A DNA stretch of 64,000 bases from Ruditapes philippinarum (lineage: Eukaryota): the NCBI RefSeq assembly GCF_026571515.1, contig NW_026854344.1, positions 310,001 through 374,000 of the forward strand, read 5' to 3'. This document shows positions 10,980 through 48,635 of the stretch, one piece after another. Under the pieces are notes generated by a model that worked only from the letters and a program-made list of their open reading frames with translations, did not search any database and was not told the DNA's origin. Made by a program: the position numbers and the translations under genes. Positions within the stretch are counted from its first letter, which is position 1, and every line of letters starts with the position of its first letter.

Positions 10980-11872
10980 GTAAGGCAGGTTTTTTTTATA
11001 TAACAGCTTTATACGATGCACATATCAAAGATTTCACCTGTTTTGAGCAGATCTTAGATACCAAAGGTGCATTAATCAATATTTCAATTTAAAACAGAAT
11101 GTCTTATTAGTGATCTAATTACTGTAGGACATCATAGACTGAGTGTAACATATTTTATAGAAGTTTGATATGTAGAATCTAAAGTCTTAGTGGAGATATT
11201 TGGCTTAGAAGTACAGGGTCAAGATGAAATTTTCAAGATTATACCTAGAATATGTTAAGAAATATTTGTAATGGCATTGTAGTTGATATCGAAATTTGTA
11301 TAATTATCACAAGTTAAAAATAGTTTTGTATTTCATTTATGGGAAACTAATACTATTTAAAATTTTTGCACATGTTTATATAAAGTTATCTCCCTTCCAT
11401 AACCAAATTGCATAGGGTAGAATAGAACAGTGCATAAAATCATCGTTATAAAATGTGAAGTTCCCTGGCTGAGACTGTGAAACTCACTATCAGTGTAACA
11501 GTGACACACTGTTAGCTTAACAGTGACACACACCATGAGTGTTACAGTGAGACACAACTTCAGTGTTGCAGTGACATACACGGAAATCACATAACCAGTG
11601 ATATTTTTGAACAAAATTATTTATTTGCAGGGACAAGAGTTGTCCACCTCAACTATTTTAAAGATTACATTGATTTTATTTACCTTTGTTAAACCACCCC
11701 CTCCCCCTTAGGTTAACAAATAGGTCAGCTGGAAGTTTAACACTTTTGGCGGAAGTTCATCAGCTCAGTTGCTGGATTTTCACTCGCTTGTTTCAAAAAC
11801 GTGCATGTTGGTTGAAAAAATAGAGTGAATTCTGCAATTTTGGGTCATAAAGGAGATATAGTATTGTTAGTG

Positions 11873-13970
11873 CAGTAAGACACACCATCAGTGTAACAGT
11901 TAGACACACTGTCAGTGTAACAGTTAGACACACTTCCAGTGTAACAGGGAGACACACTGTCAGTGTAACAGTTAGACACACTTCCAGTGTAACAGGGAGA
12001 CACATTATCAGTGTAACAGTTAGACACACTATCAGTGTAACAGTTAGACACACTATCAGTGTAACAGTTAGACACACCATCAGTGTAACAGTTAGACACA
12101 CTATCAGTGTAACAGTTAGACACACTGTCAGTGTAACAGTTAGACACACCATCAGTGTAATAGTTAGACACACTTCCAGTGTAACAGTTAGACACACTTC
12201 CAGTGTAACAGGGAGACACACTGTCAGTGTAACAGTTAGACACACTTTCAGTGTAACAGTTAGACACACTGTCAGTGTAACAGACACACTGTCAGTGTAA
12301 CAGTTAGACACACTATCAGTGTAACAGACACACTGTCAGTGTAACAGTTAGACACACTATCAGTGTTACAGTTAGACACACTATCAGTGTAACAGTTAGA
12401 CACACTATCAGTGTAACAGTTAGACACACTATCAGTGTTACAGTTAGACACACTTTCAGTGTAACAGGGAGACACACCATCAGTGTAATAGTTAGACATA
12501 CTATCAGTGTAACAGTTAGACACACTTTCAGTGAAACAGTTAGACACACTATCAGTGTAACAGTTAGACACACCATCAGTGCAATAGTTAGACATAGTAT
12601 CAGTGTAACAGTTAGACACACTATCAGTGTATTAGTGAGACACACTATCAGTGTAACAGTTAGACACACTGTCAGTGTATTAGTGAGACACACTTTCAGT
12701 GTAACAATTAGACACACCATCAGTGTAACAGTTAGACACACTATCAGTGTAACAGTTAGACACACTGTCAGTGTAACAGTTAGACACACCATCAGTGTAA
12801 TAGTTAGACACACCATTAGTGTAACAGTTAGACACACTTCCAGTGTAACAGGGAGACACACTGTCAGTGTAACAGTTAGACACACTTCCAGTGTAACAGG
12901 GAGACACACTTTCAGTGTAACAGTTAGACACACTATCAGTGTAACAGTTAGACACACTATCAGTGTAACAGTTAGACACACCATTGGTATAACAGTTAGA
13001 CACACTATCAGTGTAACAGTTAGACACACCATCAGTGTAACAGTTAGACACACTGTCAGTGTAACAGTTAGACACACCATTAGTGTAACAGTTAGACACA
13101 CTTCCAGTGTAACAGGGAGACACACTGTCAGTGTAACAGTTAGACACACTTTCAGTGTAACAGTTAGACACACTGTCAGTGTAACAGACACACTGTCAGT
13201 GTAACAGTTAGACACACTATCAGTGTAACAGACACACTGTCAGTGTAACAGTTAGACACACCATCAGTGTAATAGTTAGACATACTATCAGTGTAACAGT
13301 TAGACACACTATCAGTGTAACAGTTAGACATACTATCAGTGTAACAGTTAGACACACTATCAGTGTATTAGTGAGACACACTATCAGTGTAACAGTGAGA
13401 CACACTATCAGTGTAACAGTTAGACACACTGTCAGTGTAACAGTTAGACACACCATCAGTGTAATAGTTAGACACACTTCCAGTGTAACAGTTAGACACA
13501 CTTCCAGTGTAACAGGGAGACACACTGTCAGTGTAACAGTTAGACACACTGTCAGTGTAACAGACACACTGTCAGTGTAACAGTTAGACACACTATCAGT
13601 GTAACAGACACACTGTCAGTGTAACAGTTAGACACACTATCAGTGTTACAGTTAGACACACAATCAGTGTAACAGTGAGACACACTATCAGTGTAACAGT
13701 TAGACACACTATCAGTGTAACAGTTAGACACACTATCAGTGTAACAGTGAGACACACAATCAGTGTAACAGTGAGACACACTATCAGTGTAACAGTGAGA
13801 CACACTATCAGTGTAACAGTTAGACACACTATCAGTGTAACAGTGAGACACACTGTCAGTGTAACAGTTAGACACACTGTCAGTGTAACAGTTAGACACA
13901 CAATCAGTGTAACAGTAAGACACACTATCAGTGTAACAGTGAGACACACTGTCAGTGTAACCGACACACA
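11873..13970. repeat. 24-bp minisatellite (CAGTGTAACAGTTAGACACACTAT), ~87 units, with 20-bp deletion variants
   Basis: Direct periodicity; diverged copies at ~11480-11580. Confidence 0.97.
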
Positions 13971-16775: not shown

Positions 16776-16938
16776 ATCCAGCTAGCTTACGGAACGTCGG
16801 TGGTTCTACTCAGGTACCCGTTCGTGCCTGAAATAATGCACGGAAGGGCACCCGAGGTCTTCCTCCACCAGTAAAGCTGGAACGTCGCGATATGACCTAT
16901 ACTGTGTCGATGTGACGTAAAACCCAAAACAAACAAAC
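16776..16938 (+). mobile_element. 5'-truncated SINE family A with (AAAC)n tail
   Basis: Same body as the 30871 copy; TSD aaatgaca(g/a)tcct at 16763-16775 and 16939-16951. Confidence 0.85.
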
Positions 16939-17000
16939 AAATGACAATCCTTTCCTTTTCTTTTCTTTTCTATCAAAATGAATGTAAGATTTTCATCAAA

Positions 17001-18555
17001 TCCTGTCTTATAGTGATTATCTTCTAGTCTCATAGTGATTGTCCTCCAGTCCAATCTTATAGTGATTATCCTCTAATCTCATAGTGATTGTCCTCCAGTC
17101 CTGTCTTATAGTGATTATCTTCTAGTCTCATAGTGATTGTCCTCCAGTCCAGTCTTATAGTGATTATCCTCTAGTCTCATAGTGATTGTCCTCCAGTCCA
17201 ATCTTATAGTGATTATCCTCTAGTCTCATAGTGATTGTCCTCCAGTCCAGTCTTATAGTGATAATCCTCTAGTCTCATAGTGAATGTCCTCCAGTCCTGT
17301 CTTATAGTGATTATCTTCTAGTCTCATAGTGATTGTCCTCCAGTCCAGTCTTATAGTTGTTATCCTCTAGTCTCATAGTGATTGCCCTCCAGTCCTGTCT
17401 TATAGTGATTATCCTCTAGTCTCATAGTGATTGTCCTCCAGTCCTGTCTTATAGGGTATTATCCTCTAGTCTCATAGTGAAATGTCCTCCAGTCCAGTCT
17501 TAAAGTGATTATCCTCTAGTCGCATAGTAATTGTCTTCCAGTCCCTCTAGTCTCATAGTGAATGTCCTCCAGTCCAGTCTTAAAGTGATTATCCTCTAGT
17601 CGCATAGTAATTGTCTTCCAGTCCAGTCTTATAGTGATTATCCTCTAGTCTCATAGTGATTGTCCTCCAGTCCTGTCTTATAGTTATTATTCTCTAGTCT
17701 CATAGTGAATGTCCTCCAGTCCTGTCTTATAGTGATTTTCTTCTAGTCTCATAGTGATTGTCCTCCAGTCCAGTCTTATAGTGATTATTCTCTAGTCTCA
17801 TAGTGATTTCCTCCAGTCCTGTCTTTAGTGATTATCTTCTAGTCTCGTTAGTGAATTGTCCTCCAGTCCTTTGTCTTATAGTGATAATCCTCTAGTCTCA
17901 TAGTGATTGACCTCCAGTCCAGTCTTATAGTGATAATCCTCTAGTCTCATAGTGATTGTCCTCCAGTCCAGTCTTATAGTGATTATCCTCTAGTCTCATA
18001 GTGATTGTCCTCCAGTCCAGTCTTATAGTGATTATCCTCTAGTCTCATAGTGATTGTCCTCCAGTCCTGTCTTATAGTGATTATCTTCTAGTCTCATAGT
18101 AATTGTCCTCCAGTCCTGTCTTATAGTTATTATCCTCTAGTCTCATAGTGAATGTCCTCCAGTCCTGTCTTATAGTGATTATCTTCTAGTCTCATAGTGA
18201 TTGTCCTCCACGTCCAGTCTTACAGTGATTATCTTCTAGTCTCATAGTGATTGTCCTCCAGTCCAGTCTTACAGTGATTATCCTCTAGTCTCATAGTGAT
18301 TGTCCTCCAGTCCAGTCTTACAGTGATTATCCTCTAGTCTCATAGTGAATGTCCTCCAGTCCTGTCTTATAGTTATTATCCTCTAGTCTCATAGTGAATG
18401 CCCTCCAGTCCTGTCTTATAGTGATTATTATCTAGTCTCACAGTGATTGTCCTCCAGTCCTGTCTTATAGGTTTTATCCTCTAGTCTCATAGTGAATGTC
18501 CTCAAGTCCTGTCTTATAGTGATAATCTTCTAGTCTTATAGTGATTATCTTCTTG
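17001..18555. repeat. 49-bp minisatellite, ~32 units, built from related 27-bp and 22-bp subunits
   Basis: AGTCCTGTCTTATAGTGATTATCCTCT + AGTCTCATAGTGATTGTCCTCC; period 49 (17006 to 17055). Confidence 0.96.
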
Positions 18556-18734
18556 TCATCACATCCTCTCTCATAGTGCATTTTCTTCAATAGGGACTTA
18601 AATATGACTTCCTTAACAATTTTTTTGGATATTAAACAAAGAAGGAAAAGATTTGGGCTAAAACTAACCAGAATTCGCTATAACATTGTTTGCTTTAAAT
18701 GAAGTTTACTGCAGTCCTTGAGTCCTCTTAAATA

Positions 18735-20900: not shown

Positions 20901-22538
20901 TTTATGGATGGGTATACAATCATGTTGTATCAGTTTTCCTCTTACCTATAATATACTATAGGCAACACTTAAGTATCAAAAATGTTTTGCTTCTAACAGA
21001 AACTTGTTGAAATATCAGAGATTTTCAAAGTTAAAATTCAACTTTCTATAAACGCTTACACTGCTGAAGTGCTGAAATAGAAATTTGCTTGCTTTCAGTT
21101 TGGACTGTCCATAGTTAGTTTGATAGCTTTTAAAGAAACAACACTGAGTTACAAAAACCTAAATATATATAATCTCACAAAGATCAGCTGAAACACTTAA
21201 AACAGAAAAATATCCAAAGGATAAATAAGAATTATACTCAGAAACAAATTTCAGAAAATTGTATTTTTCTGCTATTCTTAGTCTGATTTGAGATTTTGGG
21301 TTATTTTCCACATTTAGAATAATTATTCTGAAAAAATGGAGGGAGCAAATGATCTTAAATTTTGCACCCAGGTTATTGCTTTAGACTTACATCAAATGGA
21401 ACATATATCTCAAAAAATCATTTCCAGTTCTGTCATGTCAAAAAGCCTTGGTGGAGTCCATATAATATCGAATAACAAAATTGATCAGCTAACAGACTGT
21501 TGAGAAGGTTTGCAGTTTTAAAATTTAAATATATTCATTTGCACTATCTATAGATATTTCAAAATCTTAGAACAGAACTTTTTATCCTGGTTCACTTACT
21601 GTATGAAAAAAAGTGTAGGAAATGAAAGGTGAAAGGTAAAGAATTCTCTACTAAGGTTAGTGATAGTGTAAAAGAGTGTGTGTTTGTGCCAATTATCAGC
21701 TGATAGCATGTCTAGATTATCTTTGATTTGATATTTTGTCTATATCTCTGACTCTCACTGACATAGTCTTTAATCATTACTGATCTAATACCTTGGCACG
21801 GTGCCAAGATTCCTGGCCAGAAACACACACATGTAGTCATTATATGTTTAAGAAATTGTTTTTATTACCTTTACAAAAACTGTAAAAGAAGGAAAATCTA
21901 CATATCTCCTACTCCATCTACAAGTGAAACAGTGAACTGTAGACTTGAGCATATACTCCGTGTTTTACTTGGTAAATAATTGTTCTGATAGGTTTGTTGA
22001 GCAGTCAATGACTTATTTTAACATTTTGTATGTTAAATAAGTGGGGTACTTTTATATGTACTATGCCGTGATTGATTTTCATCGCTAGTTTGAAGCAGTT
22101 TTGAGTTCTATTTTCTGTTGTATGTTTTGTTCCAAAGCATCGTGCCGGAGTTCAGCATTGATTACTCCCGGGTCTGCAAATCAGAGAATTCAGGAAATAG
22201 AGAAAAAATGAATCCCAAAATTTTATTGACTTTGAGAATTTTATACAATATTCTTTTTTTCATAATTTGTTGCTATAAACAGTATTTTAATGGACTCATT
22301 AATGTAAATTATTTCATATGAGACCTTACAACTCTTAAATATTGGACTTTGTCATGCTTCGAATGGCACTTTATATTTTGTTATTATTTTAATGAATTGT
22401 TTCAATATCAAATTTGCGAAGAAGGTGAACTTGAAAACACTGCACATATGCTTTTAACAGGCATTTCCTCATTACTGGATTGACCATTAATTAAAAAAAA
22501 AGAAAATCATGAAAAAATATTTCCAGCCCTGTCTTGTC

Positions 22539-22596
22539 CACAGGTAAACGTCGTGTGGCCATGACTTAAGTCATGGCCACACGATGTTTACCTGTG
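22539..22596. mobile_element. 58-bp palindromic mini-MITE with 8-bp TSD
   Basis: 29-bp arms with 1 mismatch and no spacer; TSD GTCTTGTC at 22531-22538 and 22597-22604. Confidence 0.88.
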
Positions 22597-24044
22597 GTCT
22601 TGTCGAAAAACCTCAGTGGAGTTCCTTTCATTAAAAGATTACAAGTATTTTTAAGTTGTTCCCATACTGTCTTCAGTAGTAAAGAAAATACATTCACCAT
22701 TCAACATATGTGTTAAGAATTGAATAATTTCGGGAGTTTTTATCTAAAAAAACATAAGGTGTTGTAAAAGAGTATGTATGTAATTGAGACCATACACTGG
22801 TATCAGGCTTTGTATCTAACACCTGCCAAATGTAAAGTGTGTTTAGTGAGGAAATGGCACTACATAACTTCAAGCAAACATATAAACAATCTTGTAAGCT
22901 TCTACAGGAGGGAAACATTCACCCATCTTTCCCCTTATCTTCAGATTAGCAGACATGCACTGATGCCAACAGATGAACATATGACAGTTTTATTCTATTT
23001 ATAGGCAGATGTTATTAACTGAGAAATATTTAATTGAGATTTAATAAATACATTAAATTCCATCTTTGATTCTTGGATTTTTTGGAATTTTCATTTGTAT
23101 GTGAAATGTATATTTGTTTTGTTTGGTTTGGTTTTATGTCACATCGACACAGTAAAGGTCATATGGCGACTTTCAAGCTAAACCTCAGGTACCCCTCCAT
23201 GCACTTGAGTAGAACCTCTGATGTTCGGCAAGTTAGCTGAATAGCTTCACCACATAAAAGGATCCAAATAAAAGTCCCTGAAGAATTTGAACCCACAGTG
23301 GTTAGGGGCACTCTATGAAAATACCTCCCTGTGATAATCAGCAATTAATTGAAGGGAGTACCCATGTTATGTTCATTTATGTAAAAGATAACCCCTTCTC
23401 TTACATTTATTCTTTATCCTCATGACAAAGAAGAATTTACTATCTTTATACTCACTAACTGTGAGTATATTTGACTGTATTAACCTTTACCACACTAAGT
23501 ACTTTAAATGGACTAGTCCATCTTTCAGTCTGGACAAAACCATTCATCAGTGTAGGTAAAATTTTGAAATATGTATTGACTAATTGGGGAACAGTGCAGA
23601 CCATGATACTAGGACACTGCAAATTATGAATTCCTTTTTTTTTTTTTTTAAGTCTATTGACTTTTGATCAAATATTTTTTATCATCTTCCTGCAAAAATA
23701 TTTGAATGGTCATCTTGTACAAAAGTTTTAATTAAAGTTTACATATAAAAAAATTCTATTTCGCAAACATATGCACTGAACTGTGCCAATATGAATGTTT
23801 ATTTTCAAACATCGCTAGTATAAATCATATAAATTGAGTTTTTTTTACAAGAAGATGCCTAATTAAGATGCAAATGAGGTAATATAGGATTAGATAAACT
23901 GGGCGAGTGTAATGATATATAATCATGGTAGCATAGACTTGAGGTAAACTGACAGACAGACCCCCACCTTAATGACAATCATGACCTTATACTGCAGAGA
24001 TAATTGTCATAAGGTATTTCTATACTTCATACAATAAACTACGG

Positions 24045-28340: not shown

Positions 28341-30519
28341 TAGTTATAAGTTAAAGAACTTGTTTTACAATCAAGCTAAAATAATTCTGTTGATATTACA
28401 AAGTTCTGCTGAGTTATTTCCACTTCATACAGAGTATATAAATGACAACATATTCTTCCGTTTTTATCCTTTCATTTTAAGAGTATATACTTTATATTCA
28501 TTATCTCTGAAAATCATATAAAATTCATGAGGTAAAATATACAGAGAATCCAGTAAAAGTGGCAAGTGTACTTCTGTTTGACATGAGTGATTGTCACATG
28601 AATGAAGAGTATGATATATAAGCCCCTACCACCTGTTCTGCCATATGCTCAAATTGTAATTGAATATGTGGTATTTATAAAATAGTACTAATGTCTTACC
28701 TATATTGAAATTAAGTATTGTGATTGACAGATTAGGTTGGCAGATGTAATTAATTGAATACTGCATCATTTCTTAAAGGTACATTATACCTCAGAAATAA
28801 ATATTTTTTTTATTTCTTTAGAAAGGGCAAACATGAATTTTATAATGTTTAAGTAACGATTTTAGAGCATGTTAGATGCTTGTTTCCTGAAGTAGTGATA
28901 CATTTATGTGAAATAATTTGTCATAAAAGTAGCAAAATATAAACAAAGTGGTATTTTGACTTTCATATATAATATTACTTTAGTAAATGTCAAAAAGCAA
29001 CAGAAGAAAAGATGATTCAGGTAATTAGCCAATGAGTAACTTTTGGCAAAAATATAAAAGTACATCAAAAATAAAAAAACTTGAGAAATAAAAATAAAGC
29101 CATTTCTGGGGCATATTGGGTCTTTAATGTAGTAGGTATACTCTTTGAAAGATTTAAATCTTAACCTACTGAATTTCTTAAACAGCTTTATCAAGCTTTG
29201 ACCATCTTCAATTTTTGGATGTCATGGTAACAAATTTAAGTTGGTCAGGCAACAGTATAATGAGCCTGGTCAGACTTGCATTAAAGGCTCAAGGAGGTAA
29301 GGGTTATATCCCTTTTTCAGAAGGAATCACCCTTTTTCCAGATTTTGTTCTTAACAATAATTCTAGGTGTCAAGTGCTGGGTGGCAGCAAGAGTTGCCCC
29401 ATACTTCAGTGTTGTTATATTTTTCTGGTTCTTCAGGATCATTAATTTCAGCATGTTAATATTGAAGATTGCATACTACTTAAACTGGTGCTAGAGGGCA
29501 TGAAAGATATTGCACTTTTACATTATCTCTGATGAACAGACTTGATCAAACCTTAAGTCTTCAATTTTCATATAATGTGGTTGGGATCTACCTGGTTTCC
29601 AGATTTGTATAATGTACTTATAATGCAGGTGGTGTAGTCATGGCCTGGTACTCATATATGATGGATGATTTTAATGTTGAGATATATTCTAGTTTTCAAC
29701 TATCATTGCAATGCAATTACTCATCATTCACCAGATGTAAATATCTTTTTCATGACAATAATTGTTACTTCTCTAGAGAGAGAGAGCGCTTGATTAAAAT
29801 AATTGTTGCATGCTGAGATGTGGGGAGATGTTTTGCACTTTTTTTTCCCATAAATTTTTAATACAGTAAATCTTATGCTGAAGACCACATCTGAATTGCA
29901 GCTTTAAATATATAATAAATTCTGTTGCTAATGAATACACATTTCACATTCCATTTTGGTGAACAGTCATGCAAGACAATTCTTACACATATTCTGCAGA
30001 CGGCTACAGAATCTAAGGTCTTAACAAGTAAGGTCAAGGTCACAGTTTAACTCTCTAAGATGAAATGAATAAATATCATACCAAAAGTTTATCATTTTAT
30101 GTATTTTATGAAACTTGGACAGTACTCTCAGTGCTTTGATTTTTAAACAGAGGAATGCTGAGTATCCTAATTTGTAAGTGTAGAATAAACTTGAATCTTT
30201 AATTAAAACACTGAGAGCATCCTGGGCCTTTAAAGATGAGGACATTGACAGGGTAGCGCTTGTTTGTTTAATGATAGCAGAACCAGGAGATTGCTCATGA
30301 ATTAGAAATTTTAATTGTATGAAAATTGTGACAGTAAGTACTTGAATATAGAGGTACTGATTATGAATATATGTACTGATTAAACATTAAGTTTATAGTG
30401 CCAAGATAGCAAAACTAGTAACTTAATCATAAGAGTTATTATAATAAGAAAATTCAATAGACAACATAAATGTGATAGTTTAGGCAGTGTAAATGCAGTT
30501 GCTTGGGCAACATTTATGA

Positions 30520-31710
30520 GGTAAATCAGGCAACACAACCTTTATGTGGTAAATCAGGCAAGACAACTTTAATGTGGTAGATCAGGCAACACAATGTGAA
30601 TGTGGTAGATCAGGCATTGTATTGTTATTGTGGAAGATCAGGCATTGTATTGTTAATGTGGTTGATAAGGCAACACAACATGAATGTGGTGGATCAGGCA
30701 ACACAATGTGAATGTGGTAGATCAGGCATTGTATTGTTATTGTGGAAGATCAGACAATGTATTGCTATTGTGGTTGATAAGGCAACACAATGTAAATGTG
30801 GTAGATCAGGCAACACAACATGAATGTGGTAGATCAGGCAACACAATGTAAATGTGGTAGTTCAGACATTCCTCACCGCTGTGGGTTGGAATCCTGACAG
30901 GGTCTTTGGATTCTTTCATGTGAGGAAGCTATCCAGCTAGCTTATGGAACGTCAGTGGTTCTACTAGGGTGTCCGTTCGTGCCTGAAATAATGCACGGAG
31001 GGGCGCCTGAGGTCGTTCTCCACCAGTAAAGCTGGAACTTCGCCAAATGACCTATACTGTGTCAGTGTGACATAAAACCCAATAAAAAAAAAATGGATCA
31101 GACATTGTATTGTTTATGTGGTTGATAAGGCAACACAACATGAATGTGGTAGATCAGGCAACATAATGTAAATGTGGTATATCAGGCATCCTATTGTTAA
31201 TGTGGTAGATCAAACAACACAATGTGAATGTGGAAGATCAGGCAACATAATGTAAATGTGGTAGATCAGGCGACATAATGTAAATGTGGTATATCAGGCA
31301 TCCTATTGTTAATGTGGTAGATCAGACAACACAATGTTAATGTGGTAGATCAGGCAACACAATGTGAATGTGGAAGATCAGGCGACATAATGTAAATGTG
31401 GTATATCAGGCATCATATCGTTGATGTGGTAGATCAGACATTGTATTGTTAATGTGGTTGATAAGGCAACACAACATGTATGTGGTAAATCAAGCAATGC
31501 ATCCTTAATGCGGTAGGTCACACAACTCTTAATGTGGTAGATCAGGCAACGCAAGGTTAATGTGTTAGATCAAACAAGCATCGTTAATCTTGTAGATTAG
31601 CCAATGCAATATTAATCTGGTGGATCAGACAACACAACATGAATGTGGAAGATCAGGCAACACAATGTTAGTGTGGTAGATCAGGCAATGCAAGGGTGAT
31701 GTGGTAGATT
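30520..31710. repeat. 28-bp minisatellite (AATGTGGTAGATCAGGCAACACAATGTG) interrupted by a SINE
   Basis: Direct periodicity on both sides of the insertion. Confidence 0.93.
30871..31093 (+). mobile_element. SINE family A, 5'-truncated, A-tailed
   Basis: B box gggttggaatcc, family A body; tcagacatt duplicated at 30862-30870 and 31098-31106. Confidence 0.85.
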
Positions 31711-34390
31711 TCACACCATATTATGGTGTTGTCATACTGAAAAGATTGAACTTTTGTAGAAAAATAAGATAATGGTTATTTTATGAAAATGATCAAAAAT
31801 AAAAACTATATATTAACATTTATTTGAACTTAGAATATGTTAAAAGAAACATTGTAAGCAAACAAATCTTTAAAGAAGGTGGGTGTCACTGACCTCCATT
31901 GCTCATTTGTTCTTCATGCTAATTTTATGTCCACATCAATGTGGTCAATTTTCATATATCATACATAAGCTGATCTGTTGCCTAGAAAATAAATGTTATA
32001 GTTTAGATCTTGTTTTTGCTTATACTTCATAACACATTAATCTGGTTTAGTAGAACACGTCTGTCTGTAGATGAAAGGGAACTGAGAGAGGCTGAGATAT
32101 ATTAGTTAAGTACCATTCAGCACATTTTCTCTTTAACCCTTACCATTCTATATATCTTATCTTTCAATCTGGACAAGACCATTCATCATTTTTAGGGAAA
32201 AATTCAAAATCTGTATGGACTGAATAGTGAGCAGTGCAGACCATGATTTCATGGCCCAACTGATCACATTGGAAGATTCTGTAGCTGTCAGCAAGCTAAA
32301 GAAAGAGCTCAACTTTCTTAAAAAATTGAAGTGACATTTGACTGGTTTTGGAAGTAGCGGCAATATGGTTAATCGGCAATTTGGTTAACCGGCAATATGG
32401 CTTAATTTCGTGGATTGACCAGAATCCACAAAGAAAACTTACAGAAAGTAGTGCTCAACAAAAAATGATATTTTTGCTGTAGATGTTTGAATTCTTGTGT
32501 AATTAACTTCCCTTGTTTGTAAGTTTATATTATCTCTCATTTCTAAGCTTAAAAATCTTTAAGTAATTATTCTTTAATATATATTTTCATGCAGCAACTT
32601 CATCAAAGCATCTTTCAGTGATTAAACATGTTCTTAACTTGAGTCATAACATTTCAATCAAGCAAGTAGTATGCATATATACATGTATTTATATAGATTC
32701 ACTTGATTTCCATTGAAAGAAATACAGTTCAACAGTGAATCAGTGATTGACCTGGCTAAATGTAAACAAAATATAAACAAAGAAATCTCTGATGAAGAAA
32801 TAGCCCTCAAGTATCCTGCACATATACATTGCCTTGAATATTCTAATGATTGAAGTATGCTAAACTTTCTAGTTTGGGAGAAATTGCTTATCTTAAGCCT
32901 GGTTCACTGAAAATTCTGATGTATAAAAACTTTTTCCAGCCGAGATAAAAAATTTCTCAGAGAGAAATCTAATGTGAAATAACTGAGTGGCAAGAATTTT
33001 TCCTAGTCTGATTTATTGTGCAGTGGAATTTATAGGGTTGGAGTTTAACTTTGAACTGGGAAATAAATTGAATAAAAATAAGTGAGTATTTTCATTTTGG
33101 ACTAATAGTGAAGGTAATGATATTGAAGTGTAATTAAAGCAGGAATCTGAAATTAGTTTATGATAATAATATGGATTTTAAAAACAATTTTAATCATCAT
33201 TATAGTTTATGTAAAGTGTTACTAATTTAAGAACCTGATGCTAATTTTAGAACGTGAATTGATCATTATTTAATTTTAATGGTTATAGATTTGTGAACTT
33301 TTTCAGAAGCTTGGATAAGGCTCAACATAACAGGTTATGGAAATTAATTAATTGATATAAGGAGAAGTAAAATAGCTTTATTGAAACTTTAAGATTTTTT
33401 ATTTGAAATTGTCTGTTATGTGAATCATTTGCAATGTTTGTGTAGTTAGGAGAACTTCCTTTATGTCAGACTTTGTTTTGTAAGTTTTTGTGTGTGTTTT
33501 ATTTACTTTCATTCAGTCAAGAATAGATTTTAATTGAAAATTTCTTCCTTGAAATAAAAGGTTACCATGTATTCCATATTTATTTTTGTCATTTTCAGCT
33601 TCATTTTTCAAAGAAAAAAATCGAGCTATTGTTTTGACCATCTATTTGGCATTGCTTAACCTTTTGCGAAGGTGCATTTTTCCAGAAACTATAAAAGATA
33701 TTCAATTCCAACATGGTATAATTGTTCACTATAATAACTGTTAGAACATCCTTGGCTAAAAGGGATTAAGGGCCGAAAAGTTGTGATTGCGCTTTCACAA
33801 AATCTGAATGCATTCCATAAAATGTGTCATGCTTCAGCGTGGACGCCAATGAATGTTATATCATAAGGGCAGATAATCCTTAAATACTTTTTTGTAAAGT
33901 TATGCCCCTTTTACTTAGATTTTTCCCCTTTTGTTAAAATCCATTTCTCATTTCAACTACCAAAGTTAAGGTATTCAATTTAAACTTGGAATATTTAATT
34001 GGATTGCATTTCTGAGGTCAATAGAGGCCTATGTAATATTTTCTTCAAGGTACATTTTTGCAAAGATATTCACCTTGAACCTAATAATACCTTTTCATAT
34101 CTAAGAAACAATAAAAAATATTTATTCTAAACTTTAAATACTTGTTTACTAAAAAAATGTTGTATTCTTTTAATCTGTCAAAGATATTTACCTTGAACTT
34201 GAAAATTTGTTCACTATAAAGGGCAGGGAAGGCTCTCAAAACACTGGCAGAATTTATTTTAATACACAGCTCTGTCAAAACTGTCCATATACTATATGTT
34301 GTGCATCTGTGAAGCCAAAAATTTCTCTTACTAGCTAAACATATTCTGCTAAAGGAACACCTTTGAGACATTTGTGAAAGTTTTTTGGTA

Positions 34391-36760
34391 AAATAGTGGT
34401 CAAAGATCACTGATGAAATAGTGGTAGAAGATCACTGATAAAATAGTAGTAGAAGATCACTTATGAAATAATGGTACCAGATAATGTAAAAGATCACTGA
34501 TGAAATAGTGGTACAAGATCAGTGATGAAATAGTGATAGAAGATCACTAATGAAATACTAGTAGAAGATCACTGATGAAATAGTGGTAGATCACTGTTGA
34601 AGTAGTGGTAGGAAATAACTAATAAAATCGTGGCAGGAGATCACTGATAAAATAGTGATAGAGGATCACTGATAATAATGGTAGAAGATCACTGATGAAA
34701 TAGTGGTAGAAGATCGCTGATAATAATGGTAGAAGGTCTCTGATGAAATAATGGCAAGAGATCACTGGTGAAATAGTGGTAGAAGATAACTGATAATAAT
34801 GGTAGATGATCTCTGATGAAATAGTGGTAGAAGATTACTGATAGAATAGTGGTAGAAGATCACTGATGAAATAGTGGTAGAAGATCACTGATGAAATAGT
34901 GGTAGAAGATCACTGATGAAATACTGGTAGAAGATCACTTATGAAATAGTGGTAGATCACTGATGAAATAGTGGTAGAAGATCACTGATGAAATAGTGGT
35001 AGAAGATCACTGATGAAATAGTGGTAGAAGATCACTGATGAAATACTGGTAGAAGATCACAGATGAAATAGTGGTAGAAGATCACTGATGAAATGATGGT
35101 AGAAGATCACTGATGAAATAGTGGTAGTAGATCACTGATGAAATAGTTGTAGAAGATCACTGATGAAATACTGGTAGAAGATCACTGATGAAATACTGGT
35201 AGAAGATCACTGATAAAATAGTGGTAGAAGATCACTGATGAAATAGCAGCAGAAGATCGCTGATGAAATAGTGGCAGTAGATCACTGATGAAATAGTGGT
35301 AGAAGATCACTGATGAAATAGTGGTAGAAGATCACTGATGAAATAGTGGTAGAAGATCACTGATGAAATGATGGTAGAAGATCACTGATGAAATAGTGGT
35401 AGTAGATCACTGATGAAATAGTGTAGTAGATCACTGATGAAATAGTGGTAGAAGATCACTGATGAAATAGTGTAGAGATCACTGATGAAAATAGTGGTAG
35501 AAGATCACTGATGAAATAGCAGCAGAAGATCGCTGATGAAATAGTGGCAGTAGATCACTGATGAAATAGTGGTAGAAGATCACTGATGAAAATAGTGGTA
35601 GTAGATCACTGATGAAATAGTGGTAGTAGATCACTGATGAAATAGTGGTAGAAGATCACTGATGAAATACTGGTAGTAGATCACTGATGAAATAGTATCA
35701 GTAGATCACTGATGAAATAGTGGTAGAAGATCACTGATGAAATAGTGGTAGGATATCACTGATGAAATAGTGTCAGTAGATCACTGATGAAATAGTGGTA
35801 GTAGATCACTGATGAAATAGTGTCAGTAGATCACTGATGAAAAAGTGGTAGAAGATCACTGATGAAATACTGGTAGTAAATCACTGATGAAATAGTGTCA
35901 GTAGATCACTGATGAAATAGCGGCAGAAGATCACTGATGAAATAGTGGTAGAATATCACTGATGAAATAGTGGTAGGATATCACTGATGAAATAGTGGTA
36001 GAAGATCACTGATGAAATAGTGGTAGGATATCACTGATGAAATAGTGGTAGAATATCACTGATGAAATAGTATCAGTAGATCACTGATGAAATAGTGGTA
36101 GAAGATCACTGATGAAATAGTGGTAGGATATCACTGATGAAATAGTGTCAGTAGATCACTGATGAAATAGTGGTAGTAGATCACTGATGAAATAGTGGTA
36201 GTAGATCACTGATGATATGTGGAAGTAGATCACTGATGAAATAGAGTCAGAAGATCACTGATGAAACAGTGGTAGGATATCACTGATGAAACAGTGGTAG
36301 AAGATCACTGATGAAATACTGGTAGAAGATCACTGATGAAATACTGGTAGATAATTGATGAAATAGTGGTAGTTAAAAATCACTGATGGAATAGAGGTAG
36401 AAGATCACTGATGAAAAAGTGGTAGTAAATCACTGATGAAATAGTGGTAGGATATCACTGATGAAACAGTGGTAGAAGATCACTGATGAAATACTGGTAG
36501 AAGATCACTGATGAAATACTGGTAGATAATTGATGAAATAGTGGTAGTTAAAAATCACTGATGGAATAGTGTCAGTAGATCACTGATGAAATAGTGGTAG
36601 TAGATGATCACTGATGAAATAGCGGTAGAATATCACTGATGAAAAAGTGGTAGAATATTACTGATGAAATAGTGGTAGGAAATCTGATGAAATAGTGGTA
36701 GAAGATCACTGATGGAATAGTGTTAAAAGATCACTGATGAAATAGTGGTACAGGATCACT
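34391..36760. repeat. 25-bp minisatellite (GATCACTGATGAAATAGTGGTAGAA), ~95 units; diverged A-rich continuation to ~37170
   Basis: Direct periodicity. Confidence 0.97.
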
Positions 36761-37343: not shown

Positions 37344-38406
37344 GTAAGTCTACTTTAATTTACATGTAGAACCCTGCCATGTTTAATTTAGAGGGTGATA
37401 TTTACAAATGTAAGAAAAAATATACAGTAGCTTAAAACAGTGGGGCTCCTTTAATATCTCTCTATTATTAAATATCGACAGAATTAAATATTGACAGAAT
37501 TAAATTTAAAGTAGGACATATTCATTATACATGTGAAGGTGTTGAAGGGTGAATTAGGATATCAATGTAAATGTTTGGCATGATGGAGTAAGTACTGACT
37601 GTTACTTTAAGCCCCAAACATTCTATCTTGAAATAACACTTTTATGTAACATATTCCTAGAATACAACATTTATATTGGCAGCTAATTGCTAATTGGGAC
37701 TAAAAACTTAAGTTTTGCAACTTTACCTTGCAATTTTTATAACAAACTCTTTAATATAATGTTTTTTCCTTAAATGTTTACTATTTCACACAATATTTAC
37801 AGTAATCGTAAATCAGTAAATTGTTTGTGGGCGAAATCCTTAACTAATTTAAATTCATATTTTAGAAATGTTATATGGTTGGTCTGTTGTTGTAAAACTG
37901 TAATAACATTGTTGAAATTTTTTAGTGCAATTAAATCTTTTACTAATTTTTGTGCATGCTTTTAATTTAAAATAACCTTACACTGTGATAAGAAGAATGT
38001 CTTTTTATTCTTTTTCCTTTCCTTTATAATAACATGTTTTGATATGATATTATCTGATGAAGTTAAGATGTTGCATGTATCTTATTAAGACATCAGTCCT
38101 CAAACTTTGTAAGAATATATACAAGGCGTATAATTATGAGGCCGTAAAAAATGGCTGCTTAACAGTAGAAAAATTCTTTAAAATTATGCAGTTTTCCCTG
38201 TATATTCAATTAAATCCAAGTTTTTTCTTTCTCTTTTGTAAAAATACCTTTTAAATTACCAAATTTAAGAGATTAGTGGCCCTGCCTGAAGAAAATCGGA
38301 TTAGATACACATTTGGCAGAGTTATGACCCTTCACTCACTTCAAACTAGTATATATTGATGTTAAAACAATTATGTATGTTTCATATTGCAAAAAGTACA
38401 TAGGAC

Positions 38407-38744
38407 ATAGAGGATATTGAATGAGTGTAAGTTCAATACTAAATTTATTGCACGAGTTGAATAAAATAATAATATGCGAGCCTCTGGCGAGTATAATATT
38501 ATTTTATTCAACGAGTGCAATAAATTCAGTAATGAACTTACACGATTTTAATGTTCTATTTATCACATACCCAAAATAAAGACCGTTTCAAGTGATTCAT
38601 TGACGCGCCTATAGTATAACGCTAACATTTAGCGCGTCTTTACACTATGATTGTATAACGCTAATGACGTCACGTCAAAATATATGCACGGCCGTGCAAT
38701 ACCATATTAACGGAGTCGCAAAATCGGCACGGGTGTGTGATAAA
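38407..38744. mobile_element. Palindromic non-autonomous element without a clear TSD
   Basis: ~70-bp-arm hairpin 38411-38557 centred on TCT 38483-38485; second IR tttatcacatacc / gggtgtgtgataaa; interrupts a ~40-bp tandem repeat. Confidence 0.75.
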
Positions 38745-41259
38745 ATTACGTATGTTTCATTTCGCAGAAAGTACATAAGACAATTAAGTGTGTTTTACAT
38801 CACAGAAAGTACAATAAGATAATGATGTGTGTTTTCACATCATAGAAAGAAGATAGCAGAAAATACATATGTACATGTAATACTCCAGTCAGACTACTGT
38901 ATAGCAGATTAAACAACCATCACAAAATACAAACTATTCTGACACTTTTACATTCTTTAGATTTATATCATGTTACTGAAAGATGATAAAATCACATATA
39001 TCAAACATTATCTAGCATGGTTTATAATTTCATAAAAAAAACCATGCAAAGCAAAACTGAGCCGTTTTAAAGATGACAAAATTTAAAAGATAGAATTAGT
39101 AATGCTTGCGTTAGGGTAAAATCGTTTTAAGTAAGGAACATTAAACTTGTATTCAAATTTCTTAACTGTATTTTAAAGCTGTTACTCATGATTTAATCGT
39201 ATTCCTCCTCAATAAAGATGACTCAAAATATGATTTACTTCATACAGATGTGGAAAGATAAACATTATAAGTCTTGAAATCTTATATTTGATAATGTTTT
39301 TTTTTTTGCTGACTGAAATTAAATTTCAAAAGTTTTTGTTGCGGAAAATTAACAGTTAAAACTAGTTTTGCATTGTAGTAGTACATGCCCATTCACTTTT
39401 CATAACTGTCCTGATTTACTTGCGATACTTGCATTTTTCAGCTGACCCATTAAAAAATGTTCATAATAAACACTAAGATAATTATTTGGCAGAATGGACT
39501 TAATACATTTAATGTACAAAAAATCATGTTTTTTGACATGCCAAATTGGTTTAAACATATTTATTAAAGCTTGATTGCGAAACAAGTTCTTGTGACTTAT
39601 ATTAATCTTTTTCGAGTCCGCGTCCTGGAACTAACCAGTGCTGGTGTCATATAAAGAAACATGGTCGTGACCCGATTATGGCTCAAACCTATGATCCCTG
39701 GTTGAGAGGCAGACACCTTAACAATGCCAAATTTTAATTGTATGATATATAAGCTTTTCCGTTTCTTCTAGAAATCATTTTGTTTATTCTACTTGTATTA
39801 AAGATACTGTAGATGTATCAGCACTTTTCCAGGGATTACATTATACATCTGTTCACCTTTAATCTAGTAATGAAAAGGTCATCAAGTACAGTAATTTATC
39901 TGAGATGTTAATCTTTCTTAGCAATCTAATGCTTAATTAATTCTGGTCAAAACATGTCTTCCTGTCATATTTTTGTAAACAGCAGGAAAAAAAAAAGATT
40001 ATTTATACTTACATGTTTTCATTTTTATCTGAGCATATAATTAATATCTTCAATAAAAAACACATTTAGAGAAAGCTGTGGATGACAGAATAAACATTTG
40101 TCCAGAAATCATGTCTTACCATTATTCCCATCAACTTTTATCATTTTATTAGCCTGACCAATCATAATTAAGCTTTTTTTTCATGTTAGCCAATCAGAGG
40201 TCTTGATATATTTACTGCTCGTCACTGCAGTACTCTGTAATAGGTAATGTCCTTGACGGTGGCATATAAAGTTTCTGTTTTGCTTGTCAGACGTTCTGGC
40301 AGAGGAATCATAACACATTGTATTCATTGTTCCATGAGGCTTGGGACAGGATATCTGTACTCGACACAACAAAAACACTCTTAGTATTGGTCCTATAATA
40401 TCCATTTCTTCTCATAATTTAATACATATCCAGATTTTTATCTCTCTGAACTTATAAAATTCAATTTGTTTGCTATACAGGTGTTCCTAGATTTTCAGCA
40501 CAACAACTGTGCAAGCAGTTTTTAATACAAAACTATTAATAATTTTTTGGCAAGGAAATTGCTATATGTATGTACTCTTTGTTGTTATATTAATGCTTTT
40601 CCAGTCTGTTAGTGATAATATGTAAACCCCCTCTTGTTACCTTTTCGTCTAATAGAAAACAAAGCTTGTAGTCTCATTACACATTATTTTTTATGACAAG
40701 TATGATGGTAGGAATCTTTCGGGGGATAGATGGTTTTCAGGATTAGCTTATTTGCTAGAAGATTGGAACTGACTTAGTGCTCCACGTTTTCTTTCCCCCC
40801 TCCTCTTTTCTACTTGTGTTTCGATTCAGTGTGTATAGTGTGCTTGTGAAGACATTTGAGTCTCTGAATTTTTGGTGAGTGAAAAAAAAAATTGGATTTT
40901 AATCATAATATTGACTATTAATTAATTAATCAATCGAAAGTGGATTATATTTAATATGTTATTTTTTTTAAATTTGGTTTTATCTCAATGCAAGAAGATT
41001 ATTTAATTGAATTAAAAGATAATTTTTAACAAAATATTAAAAAATGGATTACTTCTAAATGGAGTTTTTTCTTTAAAAAAAATGGGTGTATTAAGGAATG
41101 ATAAAATAGAATTGTTGAATTTATTTTAAAAAACAGTGTGCTGTTGGATACTTGGTGCAAGTAGACCATTCACTGGGAATATTAATGCTGTAACACATTG
41201 ATCAGGAGTATATGTTTTTAGATCTTATAATTTTTACTGAAATTATATTTTGCCATTAA

Positions 41260-47329: not shown

Positions 47330-48635
47330 CTTTTGTTGATAATCAGTGTTAGATAATGTTGCTTGACAAGGTTAGTACCCTCTGTAAACAACCAGTGAAA
47401 TACAATGCTAGGCAGGGTAACTTCTTAGAACAACCAGTGCAAAACAATGTTAGGAAAGGTACCCTCTGTTAACAACTAGTGCTAAATAAGGTTAGGTGAG
47501 GTACTCTCCATAAATAACCAGTGCTAAAAAGATCAGGCAAGGTACCTTCTGTAAACAACCAGTGCTAAAAAGATAAGGCAATGTACCCTCTGTAAACAAC
47601 CAGTGCTAAAAAGATAAGGCAAGGTACCTTCAGTAAACAGCCAGTGCTAGAAAGATAAGGCAAGGTACCTTCTCTAAACAACCAGTGCTAAAAAGATAAG
47701 GCAAGGTACCTTCTGTAAACAACCAGTGCTAAAAAGATAAGGCAAGGTACCTTCTCTAAACAACCAGTGCTAAACAAGGTTAGACAAGGTACTCTCTGTA
47801 AACAACAAGTGCTAAAAATATAAGGCAAGGTACCTTCTGTAAACAACCAGTGCTAAAAAGATAAGGCAAGGTACCTTCTGTAAACAACCAGTGCTAAAAA
47901 TATAAGGCAAGGTACCTTCTGTAAACAACCAGTGCTAAAAAGATATAGCAAGGTACCCTCTGTAAACAACCAGTGCTAAAAAGATCAGGCAAGGTACCTT
48001 CTGTAAACAACAAGTGCTAAAAAGATAAGGCAAGGTACCTTCTCTAAACAACCAGTGCTTAAAAGATAAGGCAAGGTACATTCTGTAAACAACCAGTGTT
48101 AAAAAGATAAGGCAAGGTACCCACTGTTAACAACTAGTGTTAGACTAGGTGAGGCAAGGAACCCTCTGTAAACAACCAGTGTTAGACAAGGTTAGACGGG
48201 ATATGCGCTGTTTGCAACCAGTGCTATTCAAGTTAAGGTCAAGGTACCCTCTATAAACAGCAAGTACTAGACAAGGTTAGGCAAAGTACCCTCTGTAAAC
48301 AAACAGTGCTTGAAAAAGTTTTATGGCAATGCACCTTCTGTAAACCACCTGTGTTAGGCAAAGTTAGGCAAGGTACTCTCTGTAATCAACCAGTGTTGGA
48401 GAAAAATAAGCAAGGTACCCTCTTAAAACAATTAGTGCTAAGCAAGGTTAGGCAAGGTACCCTCTGAAAACAATCAGTGCTTTACAAGGTTTAAGACAAG
48501 GTACCCTTTGTAAACAACCAGTGCTAGACAAGGTAAGGCAAGGTACCTTCTGCAAACAAGTGCTTGACAAGGTTAGGGAAGGTACCCTCTGTAAACATCC
48601 AGTGTTAGGTAAGGTTTAAGGCAAGATACCCTCTT
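47330..48635. repeat. 41-bp minisatellite (AAGGCAAGGTACCTTCTGTAAACAACCAGTGCTAAAAAGAT), ~32 units
   Basis: Period 41 (47521 to 47562); homogeneous centre, diverged edges. Confidence 0.95.

Follow-up and report, generated by a model that had tools for sequence, protein, structure and literature searches.

The long hairpin at positions 38411..38557 of the window (the whole 64-kb stretch of DNA analysed here) has GA facing GA at several places in its stem, which raises the question of whether it is a folded single-strand site and, if so, for which enzyme. The first-pass annotation treated it as a free hairpin. Its fold stands, but the hairpin is not a free-standing element: it makes up the first (5') half of a 337-bp element, which we show below to be a Crypton. 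The parts of this element and its flanks are as follows.

38369..38406, + strand: host flank, one unit of a degenerate 38-39 bp tandem repeat, with the left target half-site inside it; present in the empty allele
38407..38743, + strand: whole non-autonomous Crypton copy, 337 bp, delimited by copy boundaries and empty-allele contigs
38407..38413, + strand: seven bases after the inferred cut; 38407-38411 pair with 38555-38559, and GG at 38412-38413 is unpaired
38414..38482, + strand: left hairpin arm, starting with a WTA half-site like the right arm of the target
38423..38424, + strand: outer tandem GA, facing 38544-38545; invariant in alignment A1 (described below)
38454..38455, + strand: middle tandem GA, facing 38513-38514 (CGAG/CGAG); invariant in A1
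38478..38479, + strand: inner tandem GA, facing 38489-38490 (CGAG/CGAG), three pairs below the loop
38483..38485, + strand: apical loop TCT
38486..38559, + strand: right hairpin arm, including the five bases that pair with the first five of the element
38560..38572, + strand: internal complement of the far end (inverted repeat I9), by which the stem continues across a circle or tandem junction
38573..38680, + strand: non-coding middle, with no alignment to autonomous family A
38681..38743, + strand: 63 bp of the far end, matching the start of autonomous family A at 94%
38731..38743, + strand: last 13 bases, ending in TAA and pairing with 38560-38572
38744..38782, + strand: host flank, the next repeat unit; 38744-38749 is the six-base target spacer, lying whole on the right side

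A non-autonomous Crypton and its recombinase partner

The host genome (1.41 Gb, 15,874 contigs) was searched for copies of the element. This gave 973 candidates, and the 40 of these that were scored shared 96-100% identity. Pattern counts gave at least 1,499 small-element copies by the exact left-arm pattern, 1,681 exact element starts, and 2,286 inner cores including those of a sister subfamily. Aligned copies start with ATAGAGG, end in GTGTGATAA and are mostly 349-354 bp long, against 337 bp in the window.

In four of four public sequencing runs, from three studies, contigs join 38406 straight to 38744, without a gap in the contig coordinates, and loose ends from other copies accumulate in the run contigs at 38407 and 38744. 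Therefore, the insertion is polymorphic, and it added no duplication and lost no target base. The empty allele may be either the pre-insertion state or the product of clean excision; since 38407 and 38744 are both A, the boundary is ambiguous by one base. The absence of a clear target site duplication (TSD), noticed at first pass, is thus confirmed by the empty alleles. Among 28 copies the apparent TSD was 0, 1, 2 and 4 nt in 10, 9, 8 and 1, respectively, so that neither these copies nor the empty alleles show the regular TSD typical of DDE transposons. No terminal inverted repeats were found in the compared copies. A fixed 4-6 bp direct repeat at both ends, as in fungal and oomycete Cryptons, was not found in them either, the in-register flank identity being variable, with only TAW and one A preferred. 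We also asked whether the 39-bp direct repeat flanking the element could be a long TSD or terminal repeat, and dismissed this because both units occur in the empty allele and belong to the host tandem repeat.

The 64-kb window holds no recombinase gene. A DUF3504 profile search of the host genome returned 149 matches, 40 of which were taken with wide flanks, and these yielded what had been predicted from the window, autonomous elements with this hairpin end and a tyrosine recombinase gene. Family A (L061 and L062, 96% alike, 2.17 kb) starts with the last 63 bp of the small element in reverse (94%) and ends with the hairpin (170 bp, 81%); at L061 a small-element copy adjoins it head to tail. 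The L061 element has a single frame of at least 170 residues, which runs for 495 residues from stop to stop with the catalytic R244, HSAR (HxxR), H and Y intact. Its product (P0002) matches DUF3504 at 99.9 bits and Phage_integrase at 31.5 bits, both above the Pfam cut-offs, and family A gave only Pfam matches of the tyrosine recombinase type, with no reverse transcriptase, RNase H or DDE transposase. Two family-A recombinase copies were found, one of them intact. The shared ends are less alike than in the published Rhodnius pair (98%), so family A, a close partner, need not be the direct parent. In family B, with six copies of 2.18 kb, the hairpin has equal length, the same three GA/GA sites and a different stem; one copy is truncated at the hairpin. 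In family E (L074, L075, L080 and L093) the recombinase frame is split by a fragment of a Crypton of another family, at nearly the same site in several copies.

The predicted structure of the recombinase (mean pLDDT 77) lies nearest to the folds of QRICH1 and Cre, and its best relative of solved structure is QRICH1, a Crypton-derived gene. Integron integrase ranks 40 by fold, and IntI4 is a weak sequence match (E 0.0029). Residues 11-54 (L061:2548-4032, - strand) are predicted to form a small all-beta N-terminal domain before the core, with no Pfam match.

The 337-bp element is therefore a non-autonomous CryptonA-type transposon, a class assigned by domain and ends rather than by a tree against named CryptonA references. 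The animal CryptonA elements in the available text of PMC3212892 likewise comprise an autonomous element of ~2 kb that encodes a single DUF3504 tyrosine recombinase and lacks both terminal inverted repeats and a TSD, and fixed direct repeats are not reported for them either. They include a short, abundant non-autonomous form, CryptonA-1N2_OL, of 353 bp, against ~351 bp for most copies here. In that text all rows for terminal repeats read 'n.d.', none having been found, and neither 'hairpin' nor 'palindrom' occurs; the hairpin, the GA/GA sites, the junction complement and the dyad target found here are absent from its description.

The hairpin and its tandem GA sites

The + strand folds around the loop TCT at 38483-38485 as first proposed, with pairing about position 38484, and GA does face GA at 38478-79/38489-90, 38454-55/38513-14 and 38423-24/38544-45. 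The stem, put at ~70 bp in the first-pass annotation, has 69 positions (38414-38482 against 38486-38554), with 56 Watson-Crick pairs, 3 G.T pairs and 10 mismatches, six of which belong to the GA sites. The sites were also said to lie mostly in CGAG context, and of the six GA four do; TGAG and CGAT account for one each, the latter through a private change at 38546 in the window copy, where nearly all aligned copies have A. The outer stem register contains the GG bulge at 38412-13. Against shuffled sequences, the folding z-score was -10.7 for the + strand and -11.1 for the - strand.

Decay of a perfect stem is an unlikely source of such sites, as had been supposed: in 200,000 simulated runs, each placing 11 substitutions in a perfect 68-bp stem, a frequency of 1.7e-4 was obtained for at least two tandem GA/GA or TC/TC sites. 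All three sites are present in 28 of 30 genomic copies, and the inner site is intact in 91 of 100. The family is thus not a perfect palindrome. Alignment A1 covers nine hairpins in five lineages, with a metagenome contig among them; of its cells, 97.7% pair, and 35 of 68 pairs have changed on both sides, which provides the compensatory changes expected of a conserved stem. Covariation alone is weak evidence, because the rows are related and arm-to-arm conversion can produce compensatory changes without selection. The telling point is that the GA positions resist conversion, being invariant at 12 of 12 against 52 of 126 other stem positions (four lineages, p 5e-5).

Conversion to perfect pairs does occur in the genome. 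Perfect-palindrome cores gave 8 matches against 2,286 cores, representing ~5 in-place conversion events once the head-to-head fusions L176 and L177 are set aside and L181 and L182 are taken together as a single rearranged locus. Two copies of family B are converted; in family E one copy retains GA/GA and two are converted in opposite directions. The families thus keep GA/GA although individual copies lose it. In the two fusions (approximately L176:1400-1600 and L177:1400-1600), two elements meet head to head through the hairpin centre to form perfect palindromes, which suggests recombination or template switching at the loop.

For comparison across families, one hairpin was taken from each, 18 in total and only from loci with a detected hairpin, and the strand was picked by position alone. 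On the strand so chosen, GA/GA makes up 28 of 34 2x2 loops and TC/TC none; 15 of the 18 hairpins contain at least one GA/GA. The GA strand is antisense to the open reading frame in one recombinase clade and sense in another, so its polarity follows the element end and not the mRNA. Regardless of gene orientation, the hairpin always leads the element on this strand, which fits a function at the DNA end better than one in an mRNA; in the window copy the GA strand is the + strand, antisense to the recombinase gene of the partner. The recombinase tree used here is a quick version with long branches and a midpoint root, and shows the two orientation groups only. Among 44 metagenome loci, 13 carry, downstream of the recombinase and antisense to it, a hairpin with GA/GA, 19 showed no hairpin (9 of these with at least 700 bases of downstream flank), and the rest have other hairpins or layouts; several recombinase loci of the host genome also have no hairpin.

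In a standard DNA energy model the GA strand of the window copy is favoured by only 1.6 kcal/mol, and across the 18 hairpins its advantage is ~1-7 kcal/mol, with the GA strand equal or worse in 4. RNA parameters give -75.1 for the GA strand against -65.2 for the other strand, an advantage of ~10 kcal/mol. Tandem sheared G.A pairs in CGAG blocks are reported, from NMR, to form stable DNA hairpins, and the GNA triloop to be a stable DNA loop (PMC10085684, in the part available). A GNA triloop caps 10 of the 18 family hairpins; the small-element family has TCT instead. An Rfam search of the hairpin returned 9 matches at E up to 1, all under the gathering score and consisting only of weak miRNA-type hairpins, and a SECIS or K-turn reading was rejected since the helix lengths and bulges are incompatible with either motif.

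Other repeats occur in the window. The segment 52105-52293 is an abundant nested palindromic repeat without GA/GA, with relatives in L043, L064, L068, L076, L077, L078 and L099; by contrast with the element, it indicates that long hairpins of the host genome do not generally carry GA/GA. Positions 22538-22597 form a near-perfect 60-bp palindrome with no loop (97% complementary), and minisatellite arrays lie at ~11700-13500, 16850-18660, 30400-31780, 34350-36000 and 47330-48620, with periods of 24, 49, 28, 25 and 41-42 bp, respectively.

Junction, target and spacer

Just behind the hairpin lie 13 bases (38560-72) that are the complement of the far end (38731-43). Such a match, 12-24 nt long and of differing sequence, is found in 11 of 12 families, the twelfth being family F, in which the far end is provisional, and across these families the far end terminates in TAA. 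Copy comparison independently fixed the far ends of the small-element family, A, B, D, E, G, H and the L121 group, whereas in F, I, L101 and L108 they were placed from the complementarity. Because of this complementarity, the stem runs on past the joint once the ends are joined, whether in a circle or in tandem. In 12 of 12 families the joined strand is two bases longer than its partner strand, and a WT[AC] half-site stands 7 nt after the joint on the GA strand in 11 of 12 and 5 nt on the partner. In the window copy, 38407..38413 would form the central spacer, with an asymmetry of 7 against 5.

Tandem junctions are present in the genome, where 65 exact head-to-tail junctions were counted. The arrays on three contigs examined contain small-element family copies only; mixed junctions occur at L061 (family A followed by a small element), L025 and L076. 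At L199:1408-8701 (G000:C10169), ten full or partial copies lie within 7.3 kb in runs of two to four, and two of these runs have apparently been duplicated together with flank.

The target consensus, obtained from 67 left and 55 right flanks of the small-element family and close relatives, is a TAW-N6-WTA dyad. The left flank prefers T at -3 (51/67) and A at -2 (60/67); the right flank prefers A at 0 (49/55), T at +7 (45/55) and A at +8 (31/55). Dyad symmetry has its maximum, 0.706, at a spacer of 6 bp, with the next best at 0.242. This layout corresponds to the canonical tyrosine recombinase site as given in the available text of PMC2727003.

In the inserted copies the target spacer remains whole on one side, with the six bases of the element itself, ATAGAG, on the other. 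At the left ends 1,374 of 1,681 are exact ATAGAG, about the expectation at 3% divergence, and in 27 of 27 copies found by the inner core alone the six bases are within one mismatch of it. Two staggered exchanges without spacer homology would be expected to leave about half of the copies with a foreign spacer after replication. No such class was seen among the 1,681 starts or the 27 core-found copies, and retention of the spacer of the element fits exchange of one strand only.

Copies often lie inside or against other Crypton-type elements (L005, L012, L019, the flanks of L022, L076:5237-5410, L079 and L080), which suggests that element ends and interiors, including those of unrelated Crypton families, are preferred targets.

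Proposed mechanism and alternative explanations

Judged from the sequence, the hairpin is probably a folded single-strand recombination site, resembling the attC sites of integrons, for the tyrosine recombinase of the partner. The mechanism that we infer has four steps. The GA strand would fold when single-stranded or when forming a cruciform; sheared G.A pairs would leave its stem uninterrupted, and the other strand would have TC/TC bubbles. The recombinase would then circularise the GA strand by joining its two ends, and the junction so formed would complete the stem with a TAA arm, a 7/5 spacer and a WTA arm. One strand would be exchanged at TAA with a double-stranded TAW-N6-WTA target, and replication would resolve the junction, giving one chromatid with the insertion. 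We lean, by a small margin of belief, to a broader proposal, that animal CryptonA elements are the eukaryotic counterpart of integron cassettes, in which a tyrosine recombinase encoded by the element itself reads a folded strand by its shape (sheared G.A tandems and 7/5 spacer) and exchanges one strand with a degenerate dif-like target, with resolution by replication; such a system would have evolved independently of IntI and be common to DUF3504 clades and host lineages.

Several observations count against the folded-strand reading, namely the small DNA energy gap, which RNA parameters make larger, a TCT rather than a GNA loop, the loci without hairpin, and a fold nearest to QRICH1 and Cre instead of integron integrase. 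In Chlamydomonas, inversions between CryptonF copies (PMC9977147, available part) point to two-strand exchange in that lineage, and biased heteroduplex repair could mimic one-strand exchange.

The closest competitor is the model of Goodwin, the standing one (PMC3212892 and PMC13565253, as far as their available texts go), which we consider unlikely here while giving it more room than any other alternative. It has a double-stranded circle excised and two strand exchanges; the palindrome would consist of double-stranded binding sites, the GA of direct repeats read by sequence, and mismatch repair would always favour the element strand. The target and element arms do resemble canonical recombinase half-sites, the fold is Cre-like, and CryptonF shows clean excision as well as inversions (PMC9977147, same part), all of which this model accommodates. 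Against it, a double-stranded junction would have a spacer of 7 bp and the internal complement one of 5 bp, neither equal to the 6 bp of the target; there is no 6-bp homology between element and target spacer, and swapped spacers are absent. It also leaves unexplained how the stem turns over with constant pairing and mismatch placement.

An RNA function is improbable, and we rate it less likely than the DNA single-strand reading. The transcript of the GA strand might fold and either guide or bridge the joining of ends, or be copied by a borrowed reverse transcriptase in the manner of DIRS. Tandem sheared GA forms in RNA too, and it is with RNA parameters that the GA strand gains its 10 kcal/mol. 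DIRS elements, moreover, pair an internal complementary region with a tyrosine recombinase (PMC13465315, available text). What speaks against an RNA is that the 495-residue frame of the partner matches no reverse transcriptase family, that no Rfam family reaches its gathering score, that GNA triloops, stable in DNA (PMC10085684, available part), cap 10 of the 18 hairpins, and that GA polarity is independent of open reading frame direction.

Movement as a rolling-circle, Helentron-type non-autonomous element by an HUH enzyme is very improbable. Helentron-associated elements carry sub-terminal inverted repeats and then a terminal stem-loop, lack a TSD and form arrays; the present element resembles them in all of these, its head-to-tail arrays showing 65 exact junctions and runs of 2-4 units. 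By definition, Helitrons and Helentrons have a Rep-helicase partner with the same ends; in the long elements found with both ends in common with ours, a tyrosine recombinase is the sole product encoded, the target has the dyad form typical of recombinases, and the stem is ~70 bp rather than a short palindrome.

An ordinary palindromic MITE of a DDE transposon, with decayed arms and GA/GA as frozen accidents, can be dismissed, for although long palindromic MITEs are common in the host genome and all copies of one family inherit the mismatches of their founder, terminal inverted repeats and TSD are both absent, two such sites had a chance of 1.7e-4, identical mismatches at identical spacing occur in families with very different stems and in a metagenome contig, and the empty allele together with the cross-family alignment rules it out.

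The attC-like reading can be set beside several known systems, each described here from the available part of the source. Integron cassettes (PMC2727003) share an imperfect hairpin at one end, strand-distinguishing features, an unpaired spacer by the cut and head-to-tail arrays, as well as a cut next to AA and transfer of one strand to a double-stranded target, the last two being inferred for our element; in silico, its hairpin is completed at the circle junction and carries strand-marking unpaired features. The differences are a eukaryotic host, an element-borne recombinase that is not specially IntI-like, dispersed targets, and the lack of an attI/Pc platform and intI. The GTT/AAC core of integrons is absent, the core here ending in TAA, and the strand is marked by tandem GA and a 2-nt excess instead of the single extrahelical bases of attC (PMC2727003). 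In CTX phage integration by XerC/D (PMC3442271, PMC4792948), a folded single strand likewise exchanges one strand pair with a double-stranded dyad and replication resolves the product; CTX uses host enzymes and one fixed site, whereas the element would use its own enzyme and thousands of degenerate targets. DIRS elements (PMC13465315) also combine a tyrosine recombinase with internal sequence complementary to the ends, but the partner here lacks a reverse transcriptase match and long terminal repeats. The SE elements of Vibrio (PMC9345347) are tyrosine recombinase elements with one strand only in the circle; they are bacterial, have four core genes, and no folded GA-marked site is described for them in that text. 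CryptonF-1_cRei of Chlamydomonas (PMC9977147) shows clean excision with copy gain and 'a complex mode of transposition', but belongs to another lineage with 5-bp donor-target homology and inversions between copies. The terminal repeats of fungal and oomycete CryptonF (e.g. GATAAT and its complement; PMC3212892 supplement 1) resemble the TAA arm and first spacer bases here; speculatively, the reported CryptonF direct repeats may be conserved half-sites.

In the literature searched we found no account of this Crypton anatomy; palindromes may be noted in Repbase, Dfam, figures, most supplements or subscription journals (Goodwin 2003 and Kojima's 2019 review among them), which lay outside the search. 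Within the available portions of the sources, a 2026 review (PMC13565253) calls the mechanism of Crypton transposition undemonstrated and gives a model that assumes a double-stranded circle. Kojima 2018 (PMC5753468) files Eulor5 and Eulor6 as Crypton with no mention of hairpins, and the words hairpin, palindrome and single-stranded do not appear in the Glomhopper paper (PMC13465315). A 2026 Starship preprint (10.64898/2026.09.21.753150) reports circles, with no occurrence of single-stranded or hairpin, and a 2016 paper (PMC4792948) names CTX phage as the only reaction resembling cassette recombination.

The element thus represents a new family of a known superfamily, and its end structure and insertion pattern point to a mechanism that has not been described for Cryptons. 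One intact frame defines the enzyme, and the donor site, the cut position, the target consensus and the mutations worth testing are specified as well, so that the open question of mechanism becomes an oligonucleotide experiment. If the folded-strand reading is true, sheared tandem G.A pairs would have a biological role in DNA, animals would possess a structure-specific recombinase that inserts without duplication, and a structural rule would be at hand to classify many palindromic repeats. The reading would also have a bearing on how QRICH1 and ZMYM, both derived from these enzymes, originated.
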